Shown here piece after piece: positions 19,745 through 64,000 of a stretch of 64,000 nt of DNA (position 1 is the first letter of the stretch; each line of letters begins with the position of its first letter). The notes beneath the pieces are model-generated. The model saw only the letters and a program-made list of their open reading frames with translations, ran no database searches and was not told where the DNA came from. This DNA is from Clostridia bacterium (lineage in GTDB: Bacteria; Bacillota; Clostridia; UBA1212; DUPL01), in NCBI GenBank assembly GCA_050951325.1, contig JBMNIW010000004.1:64001-128000 (forward strand), read 5' to 3'. Made by a program: the position numbers and the translations under genes.

Positions 19745-20854
19745 TTATGCACTGGTCTTCTCTTTATTACTCCTTGAATAAATCCAAGCTATAACCAATC
19801 CTGCAAAGAAACCTCCGAAATGGCCGTAGTTGTCTATACCTTCAACGAACAATCCGTATAACAGATTGAAGGCAATCATGTATGCAAAAATGAAATAGTT
19901 CCCTCTTCTTCTAAAGAGATATCCCTTCTTTGAAAAGAACATCGCATATATTAAAAATCCTCCTAGCCCCATTATGCAGCCTGATGCGCCCAATGAAAGG
20001 TAGGTTGTAAAGAAATATGACAATATATTGCCTGAAAGTCCTGAAACAAAGTACAGAACAAGAAACTTCTTCTTGGGCAAATGAGGTAAAATTATATTGC
20101 CAAAATAGTAAAGAGACAGCATGTTTCCTGCCAAATGTGCAATATCCGCATGCAGGAACATGGAGGTAACAAGCCTCCACGTCTCTCCATTCCTTATTAA
20201 TTCATTATTCTGTATGCCCAATTCTGTTAGAGGCATCACACCTGATTTAAAGTAGATGTAGCCGTCAACAAGAAAAATGAATAAATTTACGAGAATCAGG
20301 ACAAATGCAACATTAAACAGACCGACTTTCGCAAGCGGCCTTAATTCACTCTGCATTTGGACATATTCTCTTTTCTGCTTGTCCAGCGTATCATCAATGC
20401 TGGAGGTTTTAAGATTATCCAGACTTCTTTCAAGAGCTTTTCTTAATTTTCTGTCCATGGGTTTTCTGCCCGTCATTGTGGAGTAGGACAGATTGTCCGA
20501 ATCTACAAAGATTGCTTCACACAGAAGACCCCGTTCATAACATTCGTCAAATTTGTCTGACAAAGCATGTTTGAATTCTTCGACAAGCATCTTTTCACCT
20601 GTGATCAGAAAATAAAAGAAAACATTTTTTGACTGCGGTGTATACATGATACTGTCGATTAATCTGTCAAGATTAAAAATGACTAAATCAGATGTGATTT
20701 CTCTTGCATTTAAAGTATATACAATAGACTCCGCACCCAATTCCCTTTTATATAACATCGGGTTTCCCGATTTGTCATCTATATAGCCAGCATTATTTAT
20801 TAGCGACAGCGAAACAAGCTTTAAAATGTTTGCAGACTTATCCGCGTCGTACAT
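19745..20854 (-). CDS. Rhomboid intramembrane serine protease with soluble N-terminal domain
   Basis: WRLVTSMFLH, HLAGNM, GASG and GHFGG motifs. Confidence 0.93.
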   Translation of the reverse strand: MYDADKSANILKLVSLSLINNAGYIDDKSGNPMLYKRELGAESIVYTLNAREITSDLVIFNLDRLIDSIMYTPQSKNVFFYFLITGEKMLVEEFKHALSDKFDECYERGLLCEAIFVDSDNLSYSTMTGRKPMDRKLRKALERSLDNLKTSSIDDTLDKQKREYVQMQSELRPLAKVGLFNVAFVLILVNLFIFLVDGYIYFKSGVMPLTELGIQNNELIRNGETWRLVTSMFLHADIAHLAGNMLSLYYFGNIILPHLPKKKFLVLYFVSGLSGNILSYFFTTYLSLGASGCIMGLGGFLIYAMFFSKKGYLFRRRGNYFIFAYMIAFNLLYGLFVEGIDNYGHFGGFFAGLVIAWIYSRSNKEKTSA

Positions 20855-21320
20855 AACCTCCGCCTCTTTTGCTTTCTGTGCTTTTTCTTAGAGCGCTTAG
20901 TTTCTCATCGCTGTCTTTCATGAATTTGTTCAACTTGTCTTCAAAGGAACTGCTGTCTTTGGAAGACTCGTACACAGGAGGCTGAGAATAAAGCAAGTTT
21001 CCTTTGCTCTGAAAATTGCCTTTGTTTTGCTTTCTTTCCTGTTTCTTGTACTCCCTCTTGATACTCTTTGGTATCTCTCCCTGTTCCAGTTCAAGATAAC
21101 GTTTCAAAGACAAACTCAATTTTCCGTCCTTTTCAACTGAAAGGGCAACAGCTTTCACTGTCTGTCCCACTTTTAAGTAATCATTAATGTCACTTACGTA
21201 ACCTGTTGAAATTTCAGATATGTGTATCAGACCTGTAGTTCCATCCTGGATTTGAACAAAGGCACCAAATGCTGTGATACCCGTAACTTTCCCTTCTACA
21301 ATGTCATTGACATTTACCAT
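20838..21320 (-). CDS. S1 RNA-binding domain protein (YabR-like)
   Basis: GKVTGITAFGAFV, GLIHISEIS and SFEDKLNKFMKDS motifs. Confidence 0.92.
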   Translation of the reverse strand: MVNVNDIVEGKVTGITAFGAFVQIQDGTTGLIHISEISTGYVSDINDYLKVGQTVKAVALSVEKDGKLSLSLKRYLELEQGEIPKSIKREYKKQERKQNKGNFQSKGNLLYSQPPVYESSKDSSSFEDKLNKFMKDSDEKLSALRKSTESKRGGGYVRRG

Positions 21321-21340
21321 AAAATAAATAAGACCTCCTG

Positions 21341-21610
21341 CTATTTTTCATTAATAAAAACTATTTCGTCTTTTTTTACATAGCCCAGCTTTTCTCTGGC
21401 TTTCCTTTCAATATATTCATAGGTGCCTATCATCTCCTGCTCTTCCTTCAGCTTGTCGTTGTATTCAGTTTCAGCCTGGATTTGCTCCTGCATGTCATGA
21501 TAGTTCTTCATGTTCCTATCCAAAATGCTTTGCTGGCTAAGCAGTATCACTATTAGATTGACAATTATGCCTATAAATATAATGTTTCTGAGATTAAACA
21601 GTTTTTTCAT
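21341..21610 (-). CDS. divIC: Septum formation initiator (DivIC/FtsB family)
   Basis: TM, coiled coil and YIERKAREKLGYVK motif; lies between yabQ and the S1 gene. Confidence 0.85.
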   Translation of the reverse strand: MKKLFNLRNIIFIGIIVNLIVILLSQQSILDRNMKNYHDMQEQIQAETEYNDKLKEEQEMIGTYEYIERKAREKLGYVKKDEIVFINEK

Positions 21611-21745
21611 AACCATTACCTCATCTTTTCTTTGGTATACCGGTATTATATATTGTTTTATTATCAAGGTCTAGTACCTTTTTTATTAATTCAACAACTT
21701 TATGGACATATTAGCACAACAGGATATAATTGGCAACACCTGTTA

Positions 21746-22195
21746 TTATTTTTCTTTTGAATTCTTTCTTTTTTCAAACATCTTTTTTATCTTTGCTACC
21801 AGCCTAACAGGTGCTGACAATATTTTAAACAAAAGATAAATTATCCAAAACAGTATTTTATTAATAATCTGAGATATCAATGCCCAATATATTAGAATGC
21901 CACACACCAGACCAAGTATCATAAAGCCTCTTATTTCGCCGTCGTTGAATACCACCACGACAAAAATGAAAATGGCAAACGCCAAAAGCGCAAACAACAC
22001 ATCCTCTATATGGACAGCATAAGTTACCTCTTTGTAAGCTGTTTTGGTTGCTTTGCGGACTGCCCTGAAAAAATCAAAAAGAAGCGCAATAACACCTCCG
22101 GCAGCCATCATGATTAAAAACAGCTCAAGAGATCTGCCAATCATCAAACCTTCATTCAAAGCGTTTCCTGCACTCACCAGAAAAATAGTATTCAT
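21746..22195 (-). CDS. yabQ: Spore cortex protein YabQ
   Basis: LFDFFR, IEDVLF and NDGEIRGF motifs; follows yabP. Confidence 0.88.
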   Translation of the reverse strand: MNTIFLVSAGNALNEGLMIGRSLELFLIMMAAGGVIALLFDFFRAVRKATKTAYKEVTYAVHIEDVLFALLAFAIFIFVVVVFNDGEIRGFMILGLVCGILIYWALISQIINKILFWIIYLLFKILSAPVRLVAKIKKMFEKRKNSKEK

Positions 22196-22482
22196 CTGAA
22201 CATGGAGGCAAATACGCCTTTACCCTTTCCTTTCTTTTTGTCGTCATACTCAAGACTGTAAACAAAGCCGGTAACCACCAGATCATGATGCTCAAGACTA
22301 AGCTTGCCTATCTTTAACCCCTCTCCTCTTACAAGCATCTTTCCAAGCTCGGTTTCCAATGCCACATATGTATCATCAAAACCGTAAACGTCAAGAACTC
22401 CTGATATTCTGAGACGTTCCCTGTTATCCATAGAAACATTGTGTCCCGTTGTATTTGCCAGGATTTTTCTCTCCTCTGCCAT
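22192..22482 (-). CDS. yabP: Sporulation protein YabP
   Basis: NRERLRISGVLDV..FD, LETELG..RGEGL motifs. Confidence 0.92.
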   Translation of the reverse strand: MAEERKILANTTGHNVSMDNRERLRISGVLDVYGFDDTYVALETELGKMLVRGEGLKIGKLSLEHHDLVVTGFVYSLEYDDKKKGKGKGVFASMFR

Positions 22483-22499
22483 ATGCCTCACCTCAACCA

Positions 22500-22528
22500 A
22501 TAATATGCTTGAAATTTGTCCTTTATTC
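22500..22528 (-). promoter_or_regulatory. Probable SigE promoter of yabPQ
   Basis: GAATA...CATATTAT; yabP is SigE-controlled in Bacillus. Confidence 0.55.
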
Positions 22529-28663: not shown

Positions 28664-29866
28664 TTAATTAATTGGTGCAGTTCCAACCTTTACCGCATGC
28701 ACAACGAAACGTCCGTCATTGTAATTGTACCTGTGACAGGTGGAAAGAGTCAGTATGTCGTCCCTTGAAGACAGAACAATGTCGGTTTTTACCACTGATT
28801 TCTTCTGCAATCCTCTGGCAAATTTAAGAAAAGCCTCAGGGGTTGAAAAATATGTTTGGATGTAATAATCATCCGTGGTGGTTTCGTAAGCAGAAAATAT
28901 TTTCCAAACGGTGACACCTTCTTTTGTATAGGTGTAAAGGTACTGGTGCTTGAAAAATACTTCCTCTTTCTGATAATACTTGAGCTTGCCAAACATGTTT
29001 CCGTTTCTCATGTTGTGCCCATATATTATATTATTACTCCCAATTTTATTGTCCTTGCCTGAACTTGATATCCTTTCAGGCCTGTTTCTGTAGTCAAGGA
29101 ACAGCGAACCTGATGATCTATGCTCCTTGTCTATGTCTCTCTTCAGATAAAACTCGTTGTCATTGGCTTGAAGGACATAGTAATCTATCTCTGCCCCTTC
29201 ACCATAAAGCCACATTACAAAATCACTGTTTCTTGCTTCATTCTCCAGCAAGGACTGCAAAGTGGCCACCTGTGGATATGTAATTCTTGGGGGAGTCGCC
29301 ATTGGATACTCAGGGATCTCCCTGTCAGGAGTAACTTCTATCAAGCTGCCCTTACCTATATTATACTGCTCCCTTATCCTGATCATATGTTCATGGTCCG
29401 CCACATATCCATAAATCTGCTCACCAATCATTCCAAGAGCAAAAAGCATTACCGCAAGTGCAACGGATCTGCCAAACTTGTAAAACAAGAGATTCAGTTT
29501 TCTTCTCTCTCTTTCCTTGGCAGACAATTTCCTTTTCTTTTTCTTGGGAGTTATTACTTTTACGGCAATATTTTCATTAAAATCTACAAGATTTCCTCTG
29601 TCAGGCACTAAAAAATGAGGAGGAAAATCAAACATGAGGTTTTGTCCTTCCTTCAGCCTGAAAACCTTTGATTTACTGATGGAAGTTCCCTCTTCAAGTT
29701 GCTTGTTCAAAACTTCCTCGTGTTTAAGGACATCACGAATCTCTATCTCGACTTCATCTGCCAGCTTGTCGAAATATGAATCTCCCTCGTGTATCTTCTC
29801 TATCTTTGCCATCTTATTTATATCATCCAACGTCTTCTCAACATCTTCATTATTCATATCGTGCAT
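28664..29866 (-). CDS. srtB: Class B sortase with long N-terminal cytoplasmic region
   Basis: VLQANDNEFYL, GSLFLDYRN, IYGHNM, TLSTC and GRFVV motifs. Start set at ATG 29866 (GGGGAG RBS). Confidence 0.9.
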   Translation of the reverse strand: MHDMNNEDVEKTLDDINKMAKIEKIHEGDSYFDKLADEVEIEIRDVLKHEEVLNKQLEEGTSISKSKVFRLKEGQNLMFDFPPHFLVPDRGNLVDFNENIAVKVITPKKKKRKLSAKERERRKLNLLFYKFGRSVALAVMLFALGMIGEQIYGYVADHEHMIRIREQYNIGKGSLIEVTPDREIPEYPMATPPRITYPQVATLQSLLENEARNSDFVMWLYGEGAEIDYYVLQANDNEFYLKRDIDKEHRSSGSLFLDYRNRPERISSSGKDNKIGSNNIIYGHNMRNGNMFGKLKYYQKEEVFFKHQYLYTYTKEGVTVWKIFSAYETTTDDYYIQTYFSTPEAFLKFARGLQKKSVVKTDIVLSSRDDILTLSTCHRYNYNDGRFVVHAVKVGTAPIN

Positions 29867-29941
29867 GAATATCTCCCCAATATAGATTCGATATATATAA
29901 TATACAAAACGAGGCAAAAAATCAAACAGAATAAAGTTACC

Positions 29942-43162: not shown

Positions 43163-45799
43163 ATGAGGTTTTCCACGGAAAGGTTGCTTTCTCTGACTTT
43201 CGTAATTGTTTTAGTTGTAATCATGCTTGTGTCCATCAGGCATGATTACGACAAAAAACCACCCACAGGTCATTTGGAACTGACTGTGGGAGAGGTTTGC
43301 ATATTTTCACTCATGGATAATAAATACATAAAATATAATCTTGAAAAGGACACTGAATACGAAATCTATCTTGACATGGATGCAAAAACCTTCACGGATA
43401 CATACATAGGCCTTTCTATAGACAAAGGAAATATCCAAATTGACGGAAAAGACACAAACAATACCTTGGTTCCAATATCAAACAGCAAACCAATAACCAT
43501 AAAATCAGACAGTGATGCAAACCTTACCGTCTCCGTCTTTACATACAACAAAAGCATAAACAAGGAAATACTATATACCAGCAACTTTAATTTCCTAAGC
43601 AGTATCAATGACTTCTCCAACGAGAAAGAGGATTTGATTCTGGTTCTGACAGGAGATATCAAAACGACTGAAACGTTGATTATTAAAAGACCCTGCGAAT
43701 TCTTCTTGAATGGATTCAACTTTGAATCCACACAAGACTTCATTGTGGATTTTGAATCCACCAAACCATTTATAATTCACATGAGAGATAAAAAACAGAT
43801 CAGGGTTAATGCCTTCTATGCCAATACTCCAAACAGCGACATAACTATTGACAAGATCTTTTTCAAGGATGAGCCCGAATACGCAGTAAGAGCAAAGACC
43901 TTGAACGGAAAATCCATCGGCACAAAAACAACTGTAAAAAGTGCTGAAAAGTTCCTTCAGCTTTTAGATGACAATCACTACCCTTACCTTTATCCGGATA
44001 CAACAATTTCAGTTGGCAATTTTATTCTCGATAACAAGGCTGTTGAATCCTTTTACAACACTTTCAAGAAGGAAATAACAGTTACAAAGCCTGTCAGGCT
44101 CGTTATTAATAAAGGGTTTGAAATAAAGGATGTCGTGTTAAATATCCAAACGGATGAAAAAGGCACCTTGGTAGTTAATGTGGATGAAAATGCAAACTTC
44201 AGCTATCACCATATTTCAATAGATGCCCCAAACTGCTCCCTTTTATGGACAAATTCCGCTCCTAAAGAAGATTATGTGGCAAAATACATGAATGTTCAAA
44301 CATATCAGGGAAAGCCTGTAAACAGCTTTCTTGGCGGCAATGGAAAAGGAAGAATTATAGAATTTGCCAGCAATGACTCTCTGGGTCTGGAGTGGGTGGT
44401 GAAGGGAAATGTAATTGAAGCACAAATCCCCTTTGATACCAGCGACATACAGCTTGCCGATATTGAAATAAGTTTTATGACAAGTGAAGGCACAGCTGAA
44501 ATAGATAAGAAATATGTAAAAGATAATAATTTGGTAGATCTGCATGAATCCCCCTTGATTGTCGTTACCGATGAAAAAGGCAAAACAAGAACTTACATGG
44601 TATCAGTAAAGAGAAAAGCAAACTCTCTTCCAATAATCTACATATACACCGATGACTATAGAACAATCGATTCAAAGGAAGAATACATACCAGGTTCCTT
44701 CATGATGGATGCGGACCATGTAGATGGGAACTATACAATTCCAACTACAAGTATGAATATTAGGGGGAGAGGCAATTCCACCTGGAGACTTTTTGACAAG
44801 AAACCATATAGAATCAAATTTGATGAAAAGGTATCTTTGTTTGGCCTTGCACCTAACAGGGACTGGGTGCTCCTTGCAAACTATGCAGACCACTCCCTGC
44901 TAAGAAATTACGTTGCCATGGAAATGGGCAAGAAACTTACAAACCTTGAATTCACACCTTCTTCCTACCCTGTTGACTTGTTTGTTAACGGTGAATACAT
45001 GGGTGTGTATTCAATTGGCGAACAGATAGAAGTTGCAAAAAGCCGTGTTGATATTGACGAGGACTATGACGATCCTGACACCGGATATCTCCTTGAGGTA
45101 GGAGGAACTGACAATGTCCTTGAACTGGGTGTCGACTTTTTCCACTCCATGCTTCTTAAGTGGGTCGCCATAAAGAGTCCGGACACAAGGGCAATGTCAA
45201 AAGAACACTTTGACTTCATATCGCAATTTACAAAGGATGCAGACAATGCCATAGTCAGAAATCTGGATTATGAAAACTATGTAGACATTGACTCGGTAAT
45301 TGATTGGGTTATTCTACATGAATTTACCTGCAACCTCGATTCAGGATTTAGAAGAAGCTGTTTTCTTTACAAGGATAAAGGCGGAAAACTCCGCATGGGA
45401 CCCATATGGGACTTCGACCTTGCCTTTGGCAACTACTTCAGAGACAACTCTTATGACACATGGTTTACCTGCGGTGGAGAAACTTTGGGAAGCACCTGGA
45501 CTACTTTCCTTTACCAGTATCCTAAGTTTAACGAGAAATACAAAACGAGATGGAACGAGGTTAAGGATGTACTAAAAGATACCGCCCTTTCTGCAGTCAC
45601 CAACGGTAAAAACATGGTTTACAAGTCTGCAATGTACAACTTTGAAAAATGGAATAAGTTGCTTGGCAACAAAACTTCCCTGCAGCCTGAGCATATTAGG
45701 GAGATGAAAACCTATGACGACCATATCAACTATCTCCTAAATTTCATAAATACCCGTTTCGAGTGGCTTGACAACGCTATAAACAACCTGCCCTCGTAG
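43163..45799 (+). CDS. CotH kinase family protein with long N-terminal extracellular region
   Basis: N-terminal TM; IRGRGNST, KKPYRIKF, WVLLAN and GPIWDFDLAFG motifs. Confidence 0.88.
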   Translation: MRFSTERLLSLTFVIVLVVIMLVSIRHDYDKKPPTGHLELTVGEVCIFSLMDNKYIKYNLEKDTEYEIYLDMDAKTFTDTYIGLSIDKGNIQIDGKDTNNTLVPISNSKPITIKSDSDANLTVSVFTYNKSINKEILYTSNFNFLSSINDFSNEKEDLILVLTGDIKTTETLIIKRPCEFFLNGFNFESTQDFIVDFESTKPFIIHMRDKKQIRVNAFYANTPNSDITIDKIFFKDEPEYAVRAKTLNGKSIGTKTTVKSAEKFLQLLDDNHYPYLYPDTTISVGNFILDNKAVESFYNTFKKEITVTKPVRLVINKGFEIKDVVLNIQTDEKGTLVVNVDENANFSYHHISIDAPNCSLLWTNSAPKEDYVAKYMNVQTYQGKPVNSFLGGNGKGRIIEFASNDSLGLEWVVKGNVIEAQIPFDTSDIQLADIEISFMTSEGTAEIDKKYVKDNNLVDLHESPLIVVTDEKGKTRTYMVSVKRKANSLPIIYIYTDDYRTIDSKEEYIPGSFMMDADHVDGNYTIPTTSMNIRGRGNSTWRLFDKKPYRIKFDEKVSLFGLAPNRDWVLLANYADHSLLRNYVAMEMGKKLTNLEFTPSSYPVDLFVNGEYMGVYSIGEQIEVAKSRVDIDEDYDDPDTGYLLEVGGTDNVLELGVDFFHSMLLKWVAIKSPDTRAMSKEHFDFISQFTKDADNAIVRNLDYENYVDIDSVIDWVILHEFTCNLDSGFRRSCFLYKDKGGKLRMGPIWDFDLAFGNYFRDNSYDTWFTCGGETLGSTWTTFLYQYPKFNEKYKTRWNEVKDVLKDTALSAVTNGKNMVYKSAMYNFEKWNKLLGNKTSLQPEHIREMKTYDDHINYLLNFINTRFEWLDNAINNLPS

Positions 45800-55156: not shown

Positions 55157-55447
55157 TTATAGTCCTAGCTTTAAAGCCATTATTTCTTTAATTTCCAAAT
55201 CTATTTCCTTTTCTATTCTTGCTATATCTTTTGCAATATCTTCTATGGTTTCCTCAACCTTGATTTTTTTGAAATCTTTCGTGTGGGTCCGGGTTTGCTT
55301 GCCGGACTTTGCGTAGTTTTCATTTCTCCTTGCTCCAGAGACATTCTTCCTATTTTCGTTTATGCCCTGCTCGGTATCCTTATCCATTCTTCTTCTATGA
55401 TTGGGAGCTCTTCGATTGTTCTTACCCCTGTTAATATTCTCCGACAT
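55157..55447 (-). CDS. Hypothetical protein (disordered basic N-terminus, C-terminal coiled coil)
   Basis: GGAGG RBS; overlaps the upstream gene; EETIEDIAKDIARIEKEIDLEIKEI helix. Confidence 0.75.
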   Translation of the reverse strand: MSENINRGKNNRRAPNHRRRMDKDTEQGINENRKNVSGARRNENYAKSGKQTRTHTKDFKKIKVEETIEDIAKDIARIEKEIDLEIKEIMALKLGL

Positions 55448-56039
55448 CCAACTGCCTCCATTTCCTTATGGTAATAATCTCATTGTCATCATTGTTGATA
55501 TATACATTAAATCTATTACACTCTTCTTTAATGTATTTTCCCTCTTCCACCAGCACGTCATAATATCTTTCAAGTGCCAAATCATCAAAAAACGAAAACT
55601 CTTCCCTTACTTTATACAACACCCTGTTCAAATACAAATTTTCAGAACAATCGTACAAAATGGGTTCGTCCCGCCTCCTGTCAAAATCCTCAATCTGATG
55701 TGGTAGCAAGGTGCATTGTATCAGGCATTCGGGTTTTCTGTAAGTACCGAGCCTGTACTCACGGATGGGAACAAGACTTGATTCATAAAGAGACATATTC
55801 TCCTCATCATACAGCGCTCCTTCCGCTATGTAGGAAGCATCATCAGGCGCTTTTATTTTCACGGCCTTGTAGGTATCATCATAAAACTTTGTGCTGTCGG
55901 CAGGATGCAGATACGTGAGAAGAAATCTTTTTTTGAATTCATTTACCGTTATCTCCCTCTCGAAATACTGGTTCAGTTTTATGCCGCAATCCATTACTTC
56001 CTCAGCGCTGTCAATTTTTGTAAAATAAAACACCTTCAA
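55431..56039 (-). CDS. Hypothetical protein
   Basis: TTG start behind GGAGGAG; has its own promoter. Confidence 0.8.
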   Translation of the reverse strand: MKVFYFTKIDSAEEVMDCGIKLNQYFEREITVNEFKKRFLLTYLHPADSTKFYDDTYKAVKIKAPDDASYIAEGALYDEENMSLYESSLVPIREYRLGTYRKPECLIQCTLLPHQIEDFDRRRDEPILYDCSENLYLNRVLYKVREEFSFFDDLALERYYDVLVEEGKYIKEECNRFNVYINNDDNEIITIRKWRQLDVGEY

Positions 56040-56110: not shown

Positions 56111-56602
56111 TCAAATATTAATGCTGAAACCCGATACACTTAAAAAACTTTCTTGTTCAGATACCAGAAATACGTAAATGCCATCACCCAGCTCATTAAA
56201 AAAAGAATCCTCCACCCCATTATATGCAATTTCTATCCTCGCTGCCTTATCGATCAGCATATTCAAGACCCGGTTTACACAAACTGACCTTTCATCATCT
56301 TCAACATAAACAGTTTCTGATTCGCTTTCCGTCATGCCTGCAACAACGTCCTCGTAAACAAATATCATAACCTTGACATTTTGAGATGTAGGAAGAGCCT
56401 TCACACTTTCAAAGCATTTATCTCTGTCAAGCACCAGATTTCCGTCATCAAAGGAAATACAGTTAACAATCTCTCTGCCTAATAGATTCAAATTCCTTTT
56501 TTCGTCCCGCTTTAAAAATCCTTCATTAATAGTATTAATGCCCGTTAATGCAATCATCAAAAACATCCAGATTGCAACAACCCATGCAACCAGCTGATGC
56601 AT
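56111..56602 (-). CDS. Pilin/pseudopilin-like protein 5
   Basis: N-terminal hydrophobic helix and small soluble domain; last gene of the Tad-like operon. Confidence 0.55.
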   Translation of the reverse strand: MHQLVAWVVAIWMFLMIALTGINTINEGFLKRDEKRNLNLLGREIVNCISFDDGNLVLDRDKCFESVKALPTSQNVKVMIFVYEDVVAGMTESESETVYVEDDERSVCVNRVLNMLIDKAARIEIAYNGVEDSFFNELGDGIYVFLVSEQESFLSVSGFSINI

Positions 56603-56610
56603 ATTACCAC

Positions 56611-57021
56611 CTACGCAATTATCGAAACCTTAACACCTGCAGGTCTTAAGACCACTCCGGTAACCTTTTCGAAAATGGAAGGCTCCAGGCTGTACGCCAC
56701 AATCGTAAGCCTGTCGCCTGGATCAAGCTTTCTATTCAATATGTCTTCAATTTTGTAATATGTATCTGTCTGACCGGCCATAACACAGACCTCCAGCTTC
56801 ATTTCAACACAAAAGTCTCCCATTTTTGACAGGTCTTCGTTCAGATACGCCCAAACCTCGTCCGACAACATTCCTTTTGTGCTGACAGTTTCAGCCACAT
56901 CAAACAAAAGATCGTTGGTTCTTTCATTGACACCCGCATATATGCAAAATGATACGCCCGACAATATCAAATACACAAATACGAATATCGAAAGAAAGTT
57001 AGCAATAACCTTGCCGGCCAT
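56611..57021 (-). CDS. Pilin/pseudopilin-like protein 4 (TadE-like)
   Basis: MAGKVIA plus TM, amphipathic helix, KGML and LDPGDRLTI motifs. Confidence 0.6.
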   Translation of the reverse strand: MAGKVIANFLSIFVFVYLILSGVSFCIYAGVNERTNDLLFDVAETVSTKGMLSDEVWAYLNEDLSKMGDFCVEMKLEVCVMAGQTDTYYKIEDILNRKLDPGDRLTIVAYSLEPSIFEKVTGVVLRPAGVKVSIIA

Positions 57022-57046
57022 CCAGACACCTCCCTAAAAAAATCGC

Positions 57047-57409
57047 CTACGCAGTTGCCTGTGATTCAATCACAAACAGTATTTCCTTCAACGAACCGTC
57101 TTCCTTGTAGGTTTTGGTCATCCTGTACAGAGCGGTATCACTGACCTTATCAATGTCATCCATTGTCGCTTCCTGCTGGCTATCATCAAGATACACCTTT
57201 ATGCCAAGCAATGCGGCATTCTTGATATAATATTTTACAGTATTCTTTGACACCAGCGAGCTGTCATTAATCATCATGTTTAGCCTTGTCTGATCCGCAC
57301 TCACAATGTCGGATGTGTCCCTAAAACCACTCATCTGTCCAATAACTGCATAACTTATCAAACCCAAAGTTAGAACAATAATAACTATGGAAGCAATTAC
57401 CTTCTCCAT
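57047..57409 (-). CDS. Pilin-like protein 3
   Basis: MEKVIA plus TM; paralogue of its neighbours. Start set at ATG 57409. Confidence 0.6.
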   Translation of the reverse strand: MEKVIASIVIIVLTLGLISYAVIGQMSGFRDTSDIVSADQTRLNMMINDSSLVSKNTVKYYIKNAALLGIKVYLDDSQQEATMDDIDKVSDTALYRMTKTYKEDGSLKEILFVIESQATA

Positions 57410-57422
57410 CAATATTCCCCTT

Positions 57423-57833
57423 TCAATTTGATTGATCAATCATGGTTACCTGGACACGAATCACTTTTCCATCATGTCCGGTTTGCTTGTTCAACTTGAA
57501 CATTGCTCTTGAAGACAGCGACTCCATGTCTTTTGCTATCACTTGCTTGAATTCATTGTTTATCACCGAGTCTGTGTTCGGTACTACAAAACACTTGATA
57601 TTATTTGATTCATACACAAATTCATATTCAAGCTTGTCCATATTATCAAAATATCTTTGAACTTCCTCTTTACCGATTATGCTCCCATCTTTTACTCTTA
57701 AATTTAGTGCAGATGCGTCACTGCCTATGTGGTCTGAAATGTCCTTGTACTGACTGTTGACCTGGAACAAGCCATATCCAATCAGGCCAACAGTAACAAC
57801 CAGTAAAACACATAAAGCAATTACCTTTTCCAA
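57423..57833 (-). CDS. Pilin-like protein 2
   Basis: TTG start, MEKVIA plus TM; paralogue of its neighbours. Confidence 0.6.
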   Translation of the reverse strand: MEKVIALCVLLVVTVGLIGYGLFQVNSQYKDISDHIGSDASALNLRVKDGSIIGKEEVQRYFDNMDKLEYEFVYESNNIKCFVVPNTDSVINNEFKQVIAKDMESLSSRAMFKLNKQTGHDGKVIRVQVTMIDQSN

Positions 57834-57861
57834 TTAGTACATCCCCCCGTATGTTTTTATC

Positions 57862-57937
57862 AGGTTTGGGATATACTTGCCAAGGACAAAGCTTCCCCCC
57901 AACAACTTCGCCTTCAGGCAAGCATCTCCAACAACCT
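57862..57937 (-). other. Long intergenic RNA stem-loop
   Basis: AGGUU-G-UUGGAGAUGCUUGCC..AAGGCGAAG pairs with CUUUGUCCUU-GGCAAGUAUAUCCCAAACCU; no U-tract follows. Confidence 0.6.
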
Positions 57938-57939
57938 TT

Positions 57940-58335
57940 TCATTTCATGGATGTAAACTCAATTTCGACAATGCCGGCACTTTCATCAGAGCGCATTATC
58001 CTTACTTCAAACACACCCTGCGGGTCTATTGGATAAGTATCAGGATCGTATGCCTCCCCCTCATAAACACAAGATCCGTTTATCATATCCCAAACCCTTA
58101 TAACCGCACCTCCTTTTAATTCATAATACCGGATTGCCGCTATTACATCCGTGCCCAGACATTTTGAGCCATCCCGTAGATTGGGCAGCATCACCTCCTT
58201 TATCTTTTCACTGTAATCGGCCTTTTCAGCCATGGTATTCAGAAGGGCGCTGTTCTGCTGGTATAAAGGTATGATAAATATTAATAAAGACAAAACCAGC
58301 GCACCTATTACCACCTCTGCCACAACCTTGTCCAT
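57940..58335 (-). CDS. Pilin-like protein 1
   Basis: MDKVVA plus TM; GTDVIAAIRYY and a C-terminal beta hairpin are shared with its paralogues. Confidence 0.6.
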   Translation of the reverse strand: MDKVVAEVVIGALVLSLLIFIIPLYQQNSALLNTMAEKADYSEKIKEVMLPNLRDGSKCLGTDVIAAIRYYELKGGAVIRVWDMINGSCVYEGEAYDPDTYPIDPQGVFEVRIMRSDESAGIVEIEFTSMK

Positions 58336-58339
58336 AACA

Positions 58340-58987
58340 TCACCATCCAAAACCGCTAATTTCCAGCATCTCTATCCAAGGTGCCAGCAAATATAATACA
58401 AGCACCGTTAAGGCAACAAACAATCCCAACACTCCAACTATATTGATTATCTCAACTTTCTTCTTTACTTTCCTTATGCTCTCCCTTTTCTCCCTAGCAA
58501 AATCATCCTTTATAGTTTTTACTGACAAATCAAAATCATAGTTGCATGCCATGTCAAGTTTTTCATAAAAAAGCTTGACTTCCAAATCCTTTGCACTGGC
58601 CTTAAGTTCCTGGTAGAATATTTCAGTGTCAGTACTGCTTTTCTGGTGAGCTTCATATATCGCCACAAGATCCTTTTTAAAATGCTCCGACCTTGCTATC
58701 AGTGATTTCATGAGTTTTCCAAAGTCTACTGGTTTTACACTGCCGCATATAACAAACAGCTTTTTTAGAAAGTACAGCTCTTTTGCAAGTTTCGTCTTTA
58801 GATATACCTTTTTTAAAGACCTGTAGACCTCGGGCAAAAAGTAGCCAACACAGCTTGCAATAATGATTCTGTATATGTAAAGTAACTTGTTAATACCATT
58901 ATCCACCATCAAATCTGTAAAAAACATGGACAAGCCAAATATGAGACATACTCCCATACAAACAACATTCGCCTTTATACTTCTCAT
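58340..58987 (-). CDS. TadC-like platform membrane protein
   Basis: Two N-terminal TMs, helical cytoplasmic domain and a C-terminal TM; follows the TadB-like gene. Confidence 0.6.
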   Translation of the reverse strand: MRSIKANVVCMGVCLIFGLSMFFTDLMVDNGINKLLYIYRIIIASCVGYFLPEVYRSLKKVYLKTKLAKELYFLKKLFVICGSVKPVDFGKLMKSLIARSEHFKKDLVAIYEAHQKSSTDTEIFYQELKASAKDLEVKLFYEKLDMACNYDFDLSVKTIKDDFAREKRESIRKVKKKVEIINIVGVLGLFVALTVLVLYLLAPWIEMLEISGFGW

Positions 58988-58990
58988 TCT

Positions 58991-59950
58991 CTACGACCTC
59001 TCTATAACAAATATGAGAAAAGCAAACCCAACAAGAATCGCATAGTACACAAGTCCAAGCATTATGCCTCCCCTGCCTGAATAAAACTGAATCGACTCCG
59101 CTCCTAATACCTTTTCATTAAAAATCCTCGCTGCAGGCACTGCAAAGGCAAAGGCAAGTCCCATTCCAATATACCCAAGAGCTGCAGCACTCAAGTCTTT
59201 ACTGTTTTCTATGTCATCTATGATGTCTTCAAGCATGTCGTTGAACTGTCCCTTAACAACCTCGTCCCCGCCGTTGTAATATGCATGCCAGATAAGCTCC
59301 AGTAGAAGAGACATATGTATGTTGGAATACTTTCCATCAATAGCGCTGAAGGTGTCCTTTATCCTATCCATATCATTCTGCTTCAGTGCATCGTATATCC
59401 TAATCATATCGCCCCTGATGCTCTTGTGGAAATCCTCGATGCTGACACCTATACACTTCACAATATTATTTAGGCTTGCATATCTTGCACTCAAAATCCT
59501 CAAGGTTTCAGGCATATGGCTTAAAAACCTTTTGTTGGCATACGACGCAAGGAATATAAGGCCGAGACAGACAATGGATGCAAATAGAAGAAGGTAAAAC
59601 ATTGCAATATACCATAGAGGAAAGAACACCACTGTCAAAACGCCTGCAAGTATCAGAAAAACCAAGACAAACAGAATCAAAAACAACGTAGCATATCTCA
59701 TGTTCACTGCATAGGATTTGGCATTGAATATGGAGAGTTTTAGAGACAGATCTTTCATCAGCCTTGCCAGGAATCTCGATCTGGCAAGAAAAGTACACAT
59801 ACTGTCAACTCTCTTTTCAAACAGGAGTTTTGAATCAACATTTCCATATTTTACTCTGTCTTTGAACTTGACTGCATGATATACACCATATGAAATTACC
59901 ATCACTCCACTTGTGGTGCATATGAATACCAAAGGCAAATACTCAACCAT
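58991..59950 (-). CDS. TadB-like platform membrane protein
   Basis: N-terminal TMs, FLSHMPETLRIL helix of the GspF/TadB type and two C-terminal TMs; directly follows the ATPase. Confidence 0.65.
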   Translation of the reverse strand: MVEYLPLVFICTTSGVMVISYGVYHAVKFKDRVKYGNVDSKLLFEKRVDSMCTFLARSRFLARLMKDLSLKLSIFNAKSYAVNMRYATLFLILFVLVFLILAGVLTVVFFPLWYIAMFYLLLFASIVCLGLIFLASYANKRFLSHMPETLRILSARYASLNNIVKCIGVSIEDFHKSIRGDMIRIYDALKQNDMDRIKDTFSAIDGKYSNIHMSLLLELIWHAYYNGGDEVVKGQFNDMLEDIIDDIENSKDLSAAALGYIGMGLAFAFAVPAARIFNEKVLGAESIQFYSGRGGIMLGLVYYAILVGFAFLIFVIERS

Positions 59951-61595
59951 TCACATGACTCCCTTCAAATATACTCAACCCTTCTTCCATTACTTCTGAA
60001 CTTGCATACCTTGCCAGCTTGTCAAGATAGAAGTCTGATGGAGGCTCCACAAACACCCAATCCTCCCTTTCCATGTCATAACAAACTATCTCCCTAAGGT
60101 GGTACCTTCTTCCAAGAACCAGATCCTTTAACGCCTTTATACCAAGAATGTACAACTTTTTCTCCATCTCCCGCATGTCATCCACATTTGAGCCGAACTC
60201 GCAGTCCTCTCTGTCTATACATATCTCATGTATGCTCATTACCTTAATCCTCCCATCCTTCAGCCTTCCCAGATGAATAATCAAATCAATACTGCCCGCA
60301 ATATCCTCTTCCGCTGTATTCTTGTCGTTGTACATGGATGTCCTAAGCATGAGATTCCGTAGGTTTGGAACAACCTCTTGCGGTGAAAAAGAATGCATTG
60401 TGGCACAAACGCCAGCATTCAACCTCAATGCACTGTTTACAAGCTCCGCCACCTCTTCAGGCATTGTAATCTCACTGACACAAAGGACATCTCTAGATGT
60501 CTTTAAAAGATACGCAAAGCATTCGGAGAGGTTCTTTTTGTCATTCTCCACAAGAGTAATTACATTCTTTGACGGATATTTCCTGCTTACCTGCAGCTCA
60601 TTCTGTGGGTCCAGTATTCCAATTCCCCAGGAATCCGGGTACTTTTCCAGCATGGAAAGTAGAAAAGTGCTCTTTCCCACTCCCATGTCTGAGCCGGTGA
60701 CAAAAAAGCTGCCTCTTCCCGCCTGATTCATAATAAGGAACCTGTAAATCCCATCATTGATTGTGTTATACTTGTCCCTCATTTCTTCAAGAGTAATATT
60801 CTTCAAATTGAATATTCTCTCATTGTAGTACGCATCATCCGTACTGGGAGTTACTTCGTATCCTGCCACACTTATTCTGTTAAAATTGTTCTTGGAAGTT
60901 ACAACAATTGGATTTTGTCTGTCGTAGTTCAGTGATGAGTTCTGCGTTGTTTTCTTCTGAATGTTCAGTATGGTTCCGACACTGTCAAAGGACAAAAACA
61001 CAAGTCTTATCTTTCTACCCTTGTATGTAATATAAACATAATCCTTGTTAAGGACACCTATTTCGTTAATATCCTGGTTCTGCAAACTGTCTATGCAGTC
61101 CTGTCCATAGGCAAACGCATACAAAAGAATGGACAAAAATATGCATCTTTCCCTTTTGCTTTTGTATCTCCTTGTTATTGTGTCATCTTTATCCTCATTC
61201 CTTACTATCTCCCTTAGCTCCACCCAGGTAAGAACGTTTTCCACATGGTATTTGTCAATCATTTCTCCCAATCTTCTATTCTCCAGGAGGAACTCAAACA
61301 CTATCTGCGGTTCGTTGTCCAGAATGTTATCAAAGTTAATTATCCCCACCGTTTCCTTGTCCACATCAAATAGTTTACCGGATGACAACACCCTCACGTA
61401 ATAGTCTATTATATTGTTCCTTGCGTCCGCATCTCCTCTTGCAGCCATATCCTTAAGCTCTGTCATCATATTTATGGCAGACTCCGCCTGTTTCAAATCT
61501 ACATGGTAAACGGACATATACAACTCCACATCCGTAAGTATTCCCGAAACCTTGTTAAGAAGCCTTGTCCACTTTATATCCCTTGAAAGACTCAT
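59943..61595 (-). CDS. CpaF/TadA-like (VirB11/PulE superfamily) assembly ATPase
   Basis: INEI, Walker A GSDMGVGKST, Asp box LDPQNEL, Walker B VLCVSEI, His box ATMHS and IDLIIHL motifs. Confidence 0.85.
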   Translation of the reverse strand: MSLSRDIKWTRLLNKVSGILTDVELYMSVYHVDLKQAESAINMMTELKDMAARGDADARNNIIDYYVRVLSSGKLFDVDKETVGIINFDNILDNEPQIVFEFLLENRRLGEMIDKYHVENVLTWVELREIVRNEDKDDTITRRYKSKRERCIFLSILLYAFAYGQDCIDSLQNQDINEIGVLNKDYVYITYKGRKIRLVFLSFDSVGTILNIQKKTTQNSSLNYDRQNPIVVTSKNNFNRISVAGYEVTPSTDDAYYNERIFNLKNITLEEMRDKYNTINDGIYRFLIMNQAGRGSFFVTGSDMGVGKSTFLLSMLEKYPDSWGIGILDPQNELQVSRKYPSKNVITLVENDKKNLSECFAYLLKTSRDVLCVSEITMPEEVAELVNSALRLNAGVCATMHSFSPQEVVPNLRNLMLRTSMYNDKNTAEEDIAGSIDLIIHLGRLKDGRIKVMSIHEICIDREDCEFGSNVDDMREMEKKLYILGIKALKDLVLGRRYHLREIVCYDMEREDWVFVEPPSDFYLDKLARYASSEVMEEGLSIFEGSHVNG

Positions 61596-62275
61596 GGACC
61601 ACTCACCTTGTTTACAAGATGCAGCCTTGTATCCAAATATCCTGTTAAAAGAGCATTGTTCAGCGTCCTGAACTCCTCTTCATTCACTGCAAGAATTATG
61701 GTGTAAAATCCGTCACTGTCCTTCAAATACTCACATTTGCCATTTACATTGGTACACAATATGTCATAAATCCTAATCCTGCTTATGACTTCCTGGTAGG
61801 AACCGTCCGGGAATCTTGCAATTATGTCCACATAGGTTCCCTTCATTGCAAGTTCTCCCACCAGACTTTTAACTTTGAATTCCTTAAGTCTTCTAGTGCT
61901 TGAGAACTCCTCCTCATCCTGTCCTACAAGGTCAAAAGATATCTGCTGCCCTTTAACAACCGTATACTTCAGCATCCTGTCTTTTATCAAATCAAAATCA
62001 CAAACAGCATTCTCAACGATCAGGTTTGCGGGCACTTTAACAACCTCAAAATTATTCCTGTTCACATCAGTTAGAACCACTCCTGACATAAGAGGGGTTT
62101 CTCCCTTGTATGTCAACACATCAACAAATGCGCCCGTACTCTTTTTATACATCTCCTCGTACACAAGGGATGTTTTCTTCTTAACCTGAGGAATTATCAA
62201 AAAGGTGTACAACGCCGCCAAAAGAGCAAGAGATGCAAGATAAATTGCCACGGTAAAGAAAGCACTCTTCTTCAT
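61592..62275 (-). CDS. CpaB/RcpC-like SAF-domain protein
   Basis: N-terminal TM, SAF-like VVKVPANLI...VVKGQQI, then GTYVDII and IILAVNEEE of the RcpC type. Confidence 0.7.
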   Translation of the reverse strand: MKKSAFFTVAIYLASLALLAALYTFLIIPQVKKKTSLVYEEMYKKSTGAFVDVLTYKGETPLMSGVVLTDVNRNNFEVVKVPANLIVENAVCDFDLIKDRMLKYTVVKGQQISFDLVGQDEEEFSSTRRLKEFKVKSLVGELAMKGTYVDIIARFPDGSYQEVISRIRIYDILCTNVNGKCEYLKDSDGFYTIILAVNEEEFRTLNNALLTGYLDTRLHLVNKVSGP

Positions 62276-62279
62276 ACAA

Positions 62280-63851
62280 TCAACCTCCCACCCGCATAAG
62301 CTTTGAAATTACAGTATCATAGCTTGACGCAATGTCGCATACATCATCATTTACATAATAGCTTCCCTTGACATTTCTTGAAACAAGTCTTCTTCTGTCA
62401 TATGGAATTGCGCCCAAATACTTGCTCCTACCCACAATCATGGAAATACCCGACTCAGGAAGACTTACCTTGTCTATGTAATCCCAGGCCACATACCTTA
62501 AATTTTCCTCCGATATGTATCCCTTTTGGGACAACCTGTGGTAATATGCACAGCACAATTGTATGTCGTCAACATTGGCATAAGGAACTGCAATTACATA
62601 GTCTGAATTTAGCATCATTGCATTCTTTACTGGTGACATTAGTCTTTCTTCTGCCGCCACTATTACAAGGTCGAAATTGTTGTATGCCCAGTGACAGAAA
62701 TTCCTCACATCCCTGACATCGTGAATTTCAAGTTCATCAAATATGCCACTTCGTGCAATATATAAATTACTGTTTGCGTCAAAGCTTTTTAAAAGGCCAC
62801 GCCTTACCCATTCTCTTGCGCTTCTGCCAAGATACGTCTTCATCCCATAATTCAGGCTGAAGATATCGCTCTCCGATACATAGGATGCATTTGATGTGCC
62901 GGAAAGATAATATGTAATAATATTATCCGTATCTGCAAGTTCGAATATGGCTGTTTTGTAATTCAGGAAAGTAGCCGCCACATACGCAAGCTCGCAGGCA
63001 AAACCCATGTTCCCATCCACTGTAACAACAATTCTCTTGTACCGGTTTACATATCTCACACTATTTATTTTTGCATTCACAGAAGTACGGGCATTTTTCT
63101 CCCCTTCTTTAAGGAGTTTAATCTCCCTCTTAAGCTCTTTCACATCAGCAAACCTGTCTTCTGGCTCAAACTTCATGCATTTCTCAAGAACTTTTCCAAA
63201 CTTCCCATATTCCTTAAGTCTCTTTCTGTTTACAGGAGGTTTTCCGGACATTGAATAAAGAAGCACTGCGCCTATTGAGTAAATGTCACTTGACAGCATG
63301 GGCTTGCCATACAAAACCTCCGGCGCTGAATATATTTCAGTCCCAAGAACCTTTGTCGTATATTCCTCAATATTCACCGCATTTTCTGATATGTGATAAG
63401 AAGCTTCAAAGTCGCAAATCCAGATTCTTTCAAGCTTTGAATCCACCAGGATATTGGACGGCTTCAAATCTACAAAAGCGTAGGGACCATCGGAGTGTTC
63501 ATGCATTTTTTCAATTACGTCGCACAGAAGCAAACCAAAATCCATGCATTGTTTTCCATCAATGCATCCTTTTTCTTTTATGTACTCTTCCAAGGTAATG
63601 GCCTCAATCCATTCACGGACAAGATACCGAAAATCACCTTCTTCGAAGCTGCATATGAACTTCGGAACAAAATCAAAGGAGAATGAACTAACTACTTTAA
63701 CCTCATTAACTCCACAAAGGTCATCACGGTCCCAACGCTTGATGCAAACTTCCTTGTCTGTTGCCATATCAATCGCCCGCTTAACCTTATCAGACGATGT
63801 ATCGTCAATAACCCTAAAGCGCTCACTCAAGCATACTTTCAGCTCACTCAC
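62280..63851 (-). CDS. Ser/Thr protein kinase fused to a ParA/MinD/CpaE-like domain
   Basis: VCIK, DLKPSNIL, DFE, GT..YSAPE, DIYSIG and P.DR kinase motifs; C-terminal ELAY..KTAIFE, FDLVIV, SDYVIAV and LGAIPYD. GTG 63851 has an AGGTGG RBS (alternative start 63881). Confidence 0.85.
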   Translation of the reverse strand: MSELKVCLSERFRVIDDTSSDKVKRAIDMATDKEVCIKRWDRDDLCGVNEVKVVSSFSFDFVPKFICSFEEGDFRYLVREWIEAITLEEYIKEKGCIDGKQCMDFGLLLCDVIEKMHEHSDGPYAFVDLKPSNILVDSKLERIWICDFEASYHISENAVNIEEYTTKVLGTEIYSAPEVLYGKPMLSSDIYSIGAVLLYSMSGKPPVNRKRLKEYGKFGKVLEKCMKFEPEDRFADVKELKREIKLLKEGEKNARTSVNAKINSVRYVNRYKRIVVTVDGNMGFACELAYVAATFLNYKTAIFELADTDNIITYYLSGTSNASYVSESDIFSLNYGMKTYLGRSAREWVRRGLLKSFDANSNLYIARSGIFDELEIHDVRDVRNFCHWAYNNFDLVIVAAEERLMSPVKNAMMLNSDYVIAVPYANVDDIQLCCAYYHRLSQKGYISEENLRYVAWDYIDKVSLPESGISMIVGRSKYLGAIPYDRRRLVSRNVKGSYYVNDDVCDIASSYDTVISKLMRVGG

Positions 63852-63887
63852 GAATAACCACCTGCTTCGGTTTTTAGTCACAAATTA

Positions 63888-63916
63888 ATGATATCAGGTG
63901 TTTTTTTCTAAGTCCA
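63888..63916 (-). promoter_or_regulatory. SigA promoter of the Tad-like operon
   Basis: TGGACT-17-TATCAT with TG extension. Confidence 0.6.
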
Positions 63917-63967: not shown

Positions 63968-64000
63968 AAAAAAACACCGTATCCTCCAAGAAATACGGTG
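63968..64000 (-). terminator. Terminator of the upstream transcription unit
   Basis: CACCGTAT/ATACGGTG stem followed by T7 on the minus strand. Confidence 0.75.

Follow-up and report, generated by a model that had tools for sequence, protein, structure and literature searches.

What is a protein for in which a eukaryote-like kinase is joined to a ParA/MinD-fold domain without its nucleotide loop, and what does it do at the head of a gene cluster that resembles a Tad pilus locus? The question is raised by a stretch of 64,000 nucleotides (the window) from a Clostridia bacterium (GTDB lineage UBA1212, DUPL01; GenBank assembly GCA_050951325.1, contig JBMNIW010000004.1, positions 64,001 to 128,000 of the forward strand). 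The gene at 62280-63851 of the window, on the reverse strand, encodes such a fusion. The answer that we favor, tentatively and with a little less than even confidence, is that the product, soluble and built of two modules, regulates the Tad-like machine whose genes follow directly downstream: the ParA-like module, a pseudo-ATPase, would dock on that machine, and the kinase would control it.

In the program-made list of open reading frames (ORFs), the gene appears as 62280-63881; the start is placed here at the GTG at 63851. A ribosome-binding site lies just before this codon, and a database protein (P0001, 523 residues, 100% identical) begins exactly at it; therefore, the coordinates given in a preliminary description of this DNA are correct. 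That description had also found neither transmembrane segment nor PASTA sensor. A Pfam scan of the 523 residues finds no PASTA domain, and hydropathy gives no membrane segment (best 19-residue Kyte-Doolittle mean 1.28, as against 2.3-3.3 in the neighboring membrane proteins). As judged by these measures, the protein is soluble and cytoplasmic.

For the C-terminal module, sequence comparison of the protein alone is silent: it has no match of its own in Pfam, NCBIfam or PDB sequence searches, and a 10-sequence profile of the domain obtains only chance-level matches in the PDB (0.34 and 0.5). The preliminary description had read ParA/MinD topology in it, and a Foldseek comparison of both halves had been set beforehand as the test. 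The structural evidence consists of predicted models, with domain alignments 10-30 sequences deep. An AlphaFold2 model of residues 266-523 (mean predicted local distance difference test score, pLDDT, 79.1; predicted template-modeling score, pTM, 0.83; low confidence in an insertion at model residues 54-73) gives 209 PDB matches at E ≤ 1e-3. The best 50 of these 209 all belong to the ParA/MinD class: ParA, MinD, Soj, McdA, FlhG, BcsQ, NifH/BchL, CooC, HypB or related proteins. At the top stand Borrelia ParA (5tvk_B, 4e-9) and MinD (4v02, 7.6e-9, TM-score 0.64-0.67), with ParA 3ea0 also among the best; TM-scores over matches of this class are 0.57-0.67. Rank 28 is a two-domain protein of E. rectale (3fkq, 1.2e-6), which we take to be the TadZ of Xu et al. 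2012. When stand-alone relatives were added, the resulting 26-sequence profile matched MinD in the PDB (6riq_C, 7.8e-6; a second MinD, 7.2e-5), followed by ParA ‘delta’ (6.5e-4), Wzc and ParA2, and it stays in register with MinD over the segment FEYIICDSPAG...ADEAIVVTNPE. Weak Pfam AAA_31 matches occur in 7 of 105 relatives, and the ESM Atlas neighbors of the domain are unnamed Bacillota clusters (0.95), then MinD/ParA clusters (0.93). A ParA/MinD fold for the C-terminal half is supported by these models and profiles.

For the N-terminal half, sequence and model alike point to a Hanks-type kinase domain. Pfam Pkinase (PF00069) matches residues 22-243 with E = 1.4e-27; at 97.2 bits, against a cut-off of 31.7, the match is far beyond chance. 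The NCBIfam Stk1 model matches the kinase half in part (1.4e-19). In a full-length AlphaFold2 model (30-sequence alignment, mean pLDDT 84.4), pLDDT in this half is mostly above 90, and its best Foldseek matches in the PDB are PknB of M. tuberculosis (1o6y, 2.2e-14, TM-score 0.75 on the target) and Stk1/PknB of S. aureus. Whole-protein pTM is 0.51, though both domains are confident; taken with the poorly predicted linker between them, this points to independent modules.

The deviant Walker A consensus of ParA/MinD ATPases is KGGxxGK[ST]. At the beta1-loop-alpha1 position of the C-terminal domain, the window's protein has VTVDGNMGFACE; the Walker A site reads IVVTV-DGN-MGFACELAYVAA. In the full-length model, a strand (274-279) is followed by a helix (282-294), with two residues where an eight-residue phosphate loop would be expected, so the reduction of Walker A to the DGNMGF region, read earlier from the letters, is borne out. 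The window has VDGNMGFACE at this place, and none of 127 relatives has a Walker A sequence at the first loop of the domain; one match to the Walker A regular expression turned up among them, in the linker before the domain. Walker B/switch II is likewise without a conserved Asp: FDxVI is followed by AAEE in the window's protein and by TDR, VNR or LVN in others of the family. With both motifs gone, the protein is not filed as a ParA/MinD ATPase despite its fold. The cut of Walker A to a two-residue turn means that the module cannot act as an ATP-driven dimerization switch, and with Walker B unconserved as well, ATP-sandwich dimerization as in MinD and ParA is not expected.

This loss has a wide distribution. 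Searched with the domain profile, 1.84 billion cluster representatives yielded 129 proteins at E ≤ 1e-3, of which 61 reach ≤ 1e-10 and 20 reach ≤ 1e-30; each represents a cluster at 50% identity, and 127 of them were new. At the former P-loop, these share the motif h-h-x-x-N-x-x-F-[AG]-C-E-L-[AG]-Y (NxxF[AG]CEL[AG]Y, in short NxxFxxE). In a set of 12 sequences D279, N281, F284 and E287 are all invariant, and N281 and F284 are so in 30 of 30 fusions. A kinase region is recognized by our own kinase profile in 48 of the 129, four of which are C-lobe tails on truncated ORFs; Pfam Pkinase is found in 42 of the 105 longer relatives scanned, and GGDEF instead in one. The search for the same architecture in other genomes, proposed in the preliminary description, thus succeeds. 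The remaining relatives stand alone (about 250-330 residues) or carry another, unassigned N-terminal region of 150-300 residues; ESM Atlas, given the N-terminal 150 residues of one of these non-kinase forms (P0094; such forms run to 430-590 residues), returned unnamed clusters only. A further search with a member whose kinase is canonical (P0073) yielded at least 120 proteins; 113 were new, all 113 match the domain profile and 103 carry NxxFxxE, which adds at least 113 representatives of 90%-identity clusters for the canonical-kinase form. The P-loop is missing in relatives with a fully canonical kinase and in relatives without any kinase; on this comparison of sequences, its loss is an old, family-wide trait with a conserved motif of its own, not a one-off decay.

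The GGDEF-bearing protein (P0152, 602 residues) consists of a P-loop-less ParA-like domain followed by a GGDEF diguanylate cyclase (Pfam E = 2.5e-50), that is, another signaling output. Source databases use the name ‘serine/threonine protein kinase’ for relatives, among them a Clostridium thermosuccinogenes protein (P0255) and others from metagenome-assembled genomes (MAGs) of Acetivibrionales and Clostridiaceae. JGI annotation calls two relatives ‘cellulose biosynthesis protein BcsQ’; automatic annotation has glimpsed the ParA-like half, nothing more. A tblastn search of plasmids gave 196 records, all matching the kinase domain only, and none covering 80% of the query. The family is widespread and apparently unstudied: in literature whose coverage mostly excludes subscription journals, no description was found of a ParA/TadZ-like domain fused to a kinase, nor of any ParA/MinD family that lacks the P-loop.

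The features of the gene and its surroundings are collected in the table.

Features of the kinase-fusion gene, its neighbors in the window and recurrent upstream genes at related loci (window positions unless a locus is named)
Feature	Position	Strand	Basis or remark
Whole gene, kinase fused to P-loop-less ParA/MinD-fold domain	62280..63851	-	523 residues + stop; ORF list, GTG start with ribosome-binding site, identical database protein
Shine-Dalgarno AGGTGG	63858..63863	-	6 nucleotides before GTG 63851; read from sequence
Hanks-type kinase domain	63087..63830	-	Residues ~8-255; Pfam PF00069, model, Foldseek
Codon of beta3 lysine K38 (EVCIK)	63738..63740	-	Invariant 12/12 and 30/30 fusions
Catalytic loop DLKPSN (D128-N133), FV before it instead of HR (non-RD)	63453..63470	-	D128 and N133 invariant 30/30
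DFE (147-149) replacing DFG	63405..63413	-	D147 invariant 30/30; third-position E in 31/54 aligned kinase fusions
Flexible linker between modules	63042..63095	-	Residues 253-270; pLDDT <50
ParA/MinD-fold domain without Walker A loop	62283..63041	-	Residues 271-523; model, Foldseek, family profile, ESM Atlas
P-loop remnant IVVTVDGNMGFACE: strand, two-residue turn, helix	62991..63032	-	Conserved D279, N281, F284, E287
Promoter-like site, TG-extended -10, after hairpin	63888-63916	-	Consensus scan
Terminator-like hairpin and T-run closing upstream gene	63975..64000	-	Consensus scan
227-residue single-pass membrane protein in CpaB/RcpC position (tentative label)	61592..62275	-	TIGR03177 alone, E = 0.03; homologue after kinase gene in 7/9 loci
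550-residue CpaF/TadA-like secretion ATPase, Walker A GSDMGVGKST	59943..61595	-	CpaF 3.5e-9, TIGR03819 TadA 4.5e-10; 54-59% identical in 7/9 loci
319-residue polytopic membrane protein in TadB position	58991..59950	-	Position and hydrophobicity; no Pfam match; 6/9 loci
215-residue membrane protein in TadC position	58340..58987	-	Position and hydrophobicity; no Pfam match; 6/9 loci
Five small proteins (130-163 residues), one N-terminal hydrophobic helix each, pilin-like but leaderless	56111..58350	-	ORFs; conserved in 6/9 loci
CwlD-like amidase	L001 6864-7637; L003 2506-3294; L005 1825-2718; L006 8959-9777; L007 9020-9796		
PP2C phosphatase	L001 3375-5219; L007 816-2348; L006 829-2436		

The kinase-fusion gene opens the cluster and encodes its only ParA/MinD-fold protein; between it and the gene for the CpaF-like ATPase lies a single other gene, as fits a tad-type locus. 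The CpaE/TadZ-like place claimed for it in the preliminary description is supported. Of the labels given to the neighbors, ‘CpaF-like’ stands, CpaF being the best PDB sequence match of the 550-residue ATPase (the match to the NCBIfam TadA model is weak); ‘CpaB’ and ‘pilin’ are weak, and a PDB profile search with the CpaB-like protein gave nothing relevant. In most loci, the five small proteins start with MEKVIAT... and lack both a leader and the G/xxxxE prepilin motif, so that a filament, if one is made here, would not be built of classical prepilins; a scan of 60 window ORFs detected no prepilin peptidase. The available text of a survey of Gram-positive pili (PMC3244431) reports tad-like loci without recognizable prepilin in some Clostridia, and the word ‘kinase’ does not occur in it. 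The cluster had also been considered as a SpoIIIA-like sporulation channel; this was dropped, as the ATPase matches CpaF best and nothing else favors it.

A terminator-like hairpin and a promoter-like site lie directly upstream of the kinase-fusion gene, which therefore looks like the first of a transcription unit; both calls are consensus matches alone, and promoter-like sites number 25 in the region against 23.6 in shuffled sequence, no excess. The edge of the window is 119 nucleotides upstream of the listed ORF and 149 upstream of the GTG, and its own upstream genes are for this reason out of sight; the loci of relatives supply that view.

One scan of GTDB species genomes gave nine such loci of a single subfamily, all in Clostridia MAGs from gut-type sources and all of distinct species; these and the window constitute the neighborhood data. 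The order kinase fusion, CpaB-like protein, CpaF-like ATPase recurs on the same strand in seven of the nine, and the rest of the cluster follows in six of those seven (L009 is cut by the contig end). Compared with the window, the kinase fusion is 29-34% identical, the CpaB-like protein 35-39% and the ATPase 54-59%; over one and the same set of loci, evolution is much faster in the regulator than in the motor. Beyond the end of the cluster lie two unannotated genes (window 55157-56039, reverse strand). One encodes a 202-residue protein present in five of nine loci, including the two adhesin loci described below, with a promoter-like site of its own at 56103-56074; the other encodes a 96-residue basic protein, the C-terminal ~35-44 residues of which are 57-73% identical in five loci.

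Upstream, a CwlD-like spore-cortex amidase (TIGR02883, 207.9 bits, cut-off 221.55) directly precedes the kinase gene in all five loci scanned; it is itself preceded by two conserved unannotated proteins, of ~225 and 280-320 residues. Farther upstream on the same strand, in all three loci with enough sequence, is a PP2C phosphatase like Stp1/IreP (E ~1e-33) with a long C-terminal extension. It lies three genes from the kinase in L001; three redox genes intervene in L006 and L007. By its position, it is a candidate for the phosphatase that opposes the kinase. The window itself belongs to a spore-former's chromosome, with yabP, yabQ, divIC and a gene for an S1-domain protein in their usual order (20838-22500, reverse strand); it also encodes an 878-residue CotH-kinase-domain protein (43163-45799, forward strand) and a 417-residue sortase-domain protein (28664-29917, reverse strand).

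A metagenomic protein, P0222 (980 residues, on a 3.4-kilobase contig), combines three parts in a single frame: a canonical kinase, the P-loop-less domain and a T2SSE ATPase whose Walker A reads GKGAAGKT. It shows adjacency of the three at least, and may be a real fusion or may result from a lost stop codon. No second triple fusion was found among the best 120 of the 145 proteins of a targeted search. The same 120 include 771-residue CbiA+T2SSE (TadZ-TadA-like) fusions (P0361-P0383), for example from Candidatus Avelusimicrobium faecicola, and three proteins (P0360, P0380 and P0384) with an FHA domain N-terminal to a CpaF-type ATPase; both kinds bear on the regulation of Tad motors. TadZ-TadA fusions are on record (bioRxiv 10.64898/2026.07.08.737194, in the part available), and type VI secretion, as summarized in PMC11217815, offers a precedent for control of a secretion machine by kinase and FHA domain.

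How would such a regulator work? The pseudo-ParA module would do the job of the ParA-like half of TadZ/CpaE, docking at the membrane, either on the CpaF-like motor or around it; the kinase, flexibly tethered, would take the place of the receiver-like domain of TadZ and gate assembly or activity by phosphorylating itself or components of the machine; the upstream PP2C would perhaps oppose it. The preliminary description had suggested that the attached kinase has replaced nucleotide switching and may phosphorylate CpaF or the platform proteins; both steps are conjecture. A geometry for such docking may be seen in Caulobacter, where six dimers of CpaE, by the same account a ParA/MinD protein that also bears a receiver-like domain, have been fitted in situ as a ring around the CpaF motor (PMC13170226, available text). 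A complex prediction of the CpaF-like ATPase with the ParA-like domain scored 0.01 against a mark of 0.32 and, having no controls, speaks neither for nor against binding. A bolder form of the proposal would make the NxxFxxE domains a distinct pseudo-ATPase family in which Ser/Thr phosphorylation has taken over from the ATP switch of TadZ/CpaE; kinase and PP2C would time a pseudo-ParA ring round the CpaF-like motor and so switch on a Tad-derived surface machine with leaderless pilins in Gram-positive gut anaerobes, by way of an active site re-engineered (DFE, no Gly loop) rather than dead. In this full form, the scheme is speculative, and we would expect it to prove wrong in some part more readily than right.

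Some observations weigh against a regulator dedicated to the Tad-like machine. The kinase fusion is far less conserved than the ATPase beside it; the CpaB, TadB/C and pilin labels of its neighbors rest mostly on position; P0222 is a single sequence on a single short contig; and the window's kinase does without three classical features, the Gly-rich loop, the His and Arg of HRD and the Gly of DFG. Most directly, two of the nine loci (L005 and L006) keep an intact kinase fusion at the same site with the same flanks, while the Tad-like genes have been replaced (L005 4484-7563, L006 11561-14559) by a helical protein of 212-219 residues and a thioester-domain (TED)/SpaA adhesin that carries both a signal peptide and a sorting signal of the VNPxTG type; the 219-residue protein of L005 is unrelated to the 227-residue CpaB-like protein. 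The link to a pilus-like machine is therefore not obligatory.

These two loci are the best argument for a second perspective, in which the protein is a general signaling kinase, the ParA-like domain serves it for oligomerization or input, and the Tad-like genes are mere neighbors. Its targets might be, for example, the expression of surface and adhesion genes or the wall remodeling that accompanies sporulation. This would agree with the presence of the amidase and the phosphatase upstream, and with the occurrence of the domain alone, behind other N-terminal regions and once before GGDEF. Mere neighbors would hardly be expected to hold the same-strand order with the CpaF-like ATPase in seven of nine species-level loci while the kinase drifts to ~30% identity. 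Nor would it be expected that the fusion supplies the only ParA-fold protein in a type of cluster that normally has one (PMC13170226 and PMC11407121, in the parts available), or that a CpaF-type ATPase lies beside, or forms part of, P0222. The general-signaling account is accordingly a serious contender that we nonetheless think rather unlikely.

A third perspective starts from the kinase itself. The preliminary description had located VCIK, DLKPSN, APE and DIYSIG, and had pointed to the missing Gly-rich loop (IDDTSSDKV), FVD for HRD and DFE for DFG; all of these are found as described. K38 is in place, as are SAPE (175-178) and DIYSIG (D189); the HRDxKxxN loop keeps D128, K130 and N133, all conserved, with other residues in place of His and Arg; and the beta1-beta2 turn contains no glycine and does not fit GxGxxG. 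Among 54 aligned kinase fusions, 20 are fully canonical (GxGG...VY, WAIK, [YF]RD, DFG, TVYIGTRGYAAPEQ); 31, the window's included, share the re-modeled set (no Gly loop, non-RD, D-[FYLH]-E); and three are other variants. Since other Hanks kinases carry the canonical set, the re-modeled form appears to be the derived one. By profile and catalytic core, the protein is, on its sequence, a member of the protein-kinase superfamily, though one that lacks the Gly-rich loop.

It could then be supposed that both halves are dead enzymes, organizing the machine by protein contacts in the manner of the EssB/YukC pseudokinase of type VIIb secretion. Loss of three features that 20 of 54 sisters retain invites this view, as does a partner domain that is itself a pseudo-enzyme; secretion systems do use pseudokinases (PMC11217815, available text). 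The conservation across 30 fusions runs the other way: at a mean column identity of 29%, K38, E50, D128, N133, D147, T166, P177, E178, D189 and G194 are invariant in 30 of 30, which answers the preliminary requirement that catalytic residues be conserved in homologues and preserves the beta3 Lys with its alphaC Glu partner. In pseudokinases, it is usually the beta3 Lys, the catalytic Asp or the Asp of DFG that is lost. T166 falls within the activation segment, shortly ahead of the P+1 loop, at a position comparable to that of the activating phospho-threonines of PknB and PKA. The Glu that replaces the Gly of DFG is itself conserved; with the Lys, Glu, Asp, Asn and Asp all kept, this looks like a changed active site and not an abandoned one. 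The kinase module is probably still catalytic, and the pseudokinase scaffold seems unlikely.

Finally, the Asn and Glu at the helix N-terminus might still bind a nucleotide or other phosphate ligand in a non-canonical way and so form a ligand-driven switch, as the conservation of N281, F284 and E287 at the P-loop site across 129 relatives suggests a function beyond folding; with a loop of two residues, no Gly-Lys-Ser/Thr and a Walker B position that varies across the family, this is very improbable.

If the fusion is indeed a regulator of the Tad-like machine, the consequences reach beyond this locus. The positioning and licensing of Tad and other type IV filament machines are generally attributed to a ParA/MinD protein that binds nucleotide, TadZ or CpaE. 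In the NxxFxxE family, the ParA/MinD fold has no nucleotide loop and, in many members, is joined to a eukaryote-like kinase; a phosphorylation event replacing the ATP switch would be a new control logic for such machines, at work in abundant, mostly uncultured gut Clostridia. Related pilus-like clusters of gut Clostridia are already of medical interest (PMC11680825, available text). A large pseudo-ATPase family, annotated at present as ‘serine/threonine protein kinase’ or ‘hypothetical protein’, can be defined; its canonical and re-modeled kinases form a natural pair of subfamilies in which to ask what a DFE kinase without a Gly loop can do; and a member named from the cultured Clostridium thermosuccinogenes opens the question to experiment.

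Comparison with known systems places the protein among several of them and wholly within none. With PknB and Stk1 it shares the kinase fold and the catalytic core, including the conserved Lys, Glu, Asp, Asn and Asp; it differs in having no transmembrane segment, PASTA domain or Gly-rich loop, in its non-RD and DFE motifs, and in carrying a ParA-like pseudo-ATPase where those kinases carry a sensor. The overall fold and the order of secondary-structure elements are those of MinD, ParA and BcsQ. Among gene clusters, the nearest likeness is to the divergent Tad-like cluster of the gut order TANB77, likewise from uncultured gut Clostridia, with its CpaB, ParA-like, TadA and TadB/C proteins and a run of single-helix ‘pilin-like’ proteins, which cannot be annotated from sequence alone (PMC11680825, available text). 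That cluster differs in having two separate ParA-like proteins, called TadZ and CpaE, and in lacking a kinase; the text available of that paper never uses the word ‘kinase’.

There remains the comparison with TadZ/CpaE. The likenesses are the ParA/MinD fold, the two-domain build, solubility and a gene at the cluster head just before those for a CpaF/TadA-like ATPase and platform-like proteins. A sequence-level match to TadZ was not obtained, either from the PDB profile or by hhalign against a TadZ-TadA-type fusion, P0362 (probability 0.4%, an uninformative figure, because the target is a single sequence). Of the two features that define TadZ/CpaE in sequence, the Walker-A-like K/RGGxGxS/T (bioRxiv 10.64898/2026.07.08.737194, in the part available) is absent, the two-residue turn standing in its place, and the N-terminal atypical receiver domain is architecturally displaced by a Hanks kinase. 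As both features are lacking, the protein is not a TadZ, though it may work like one.

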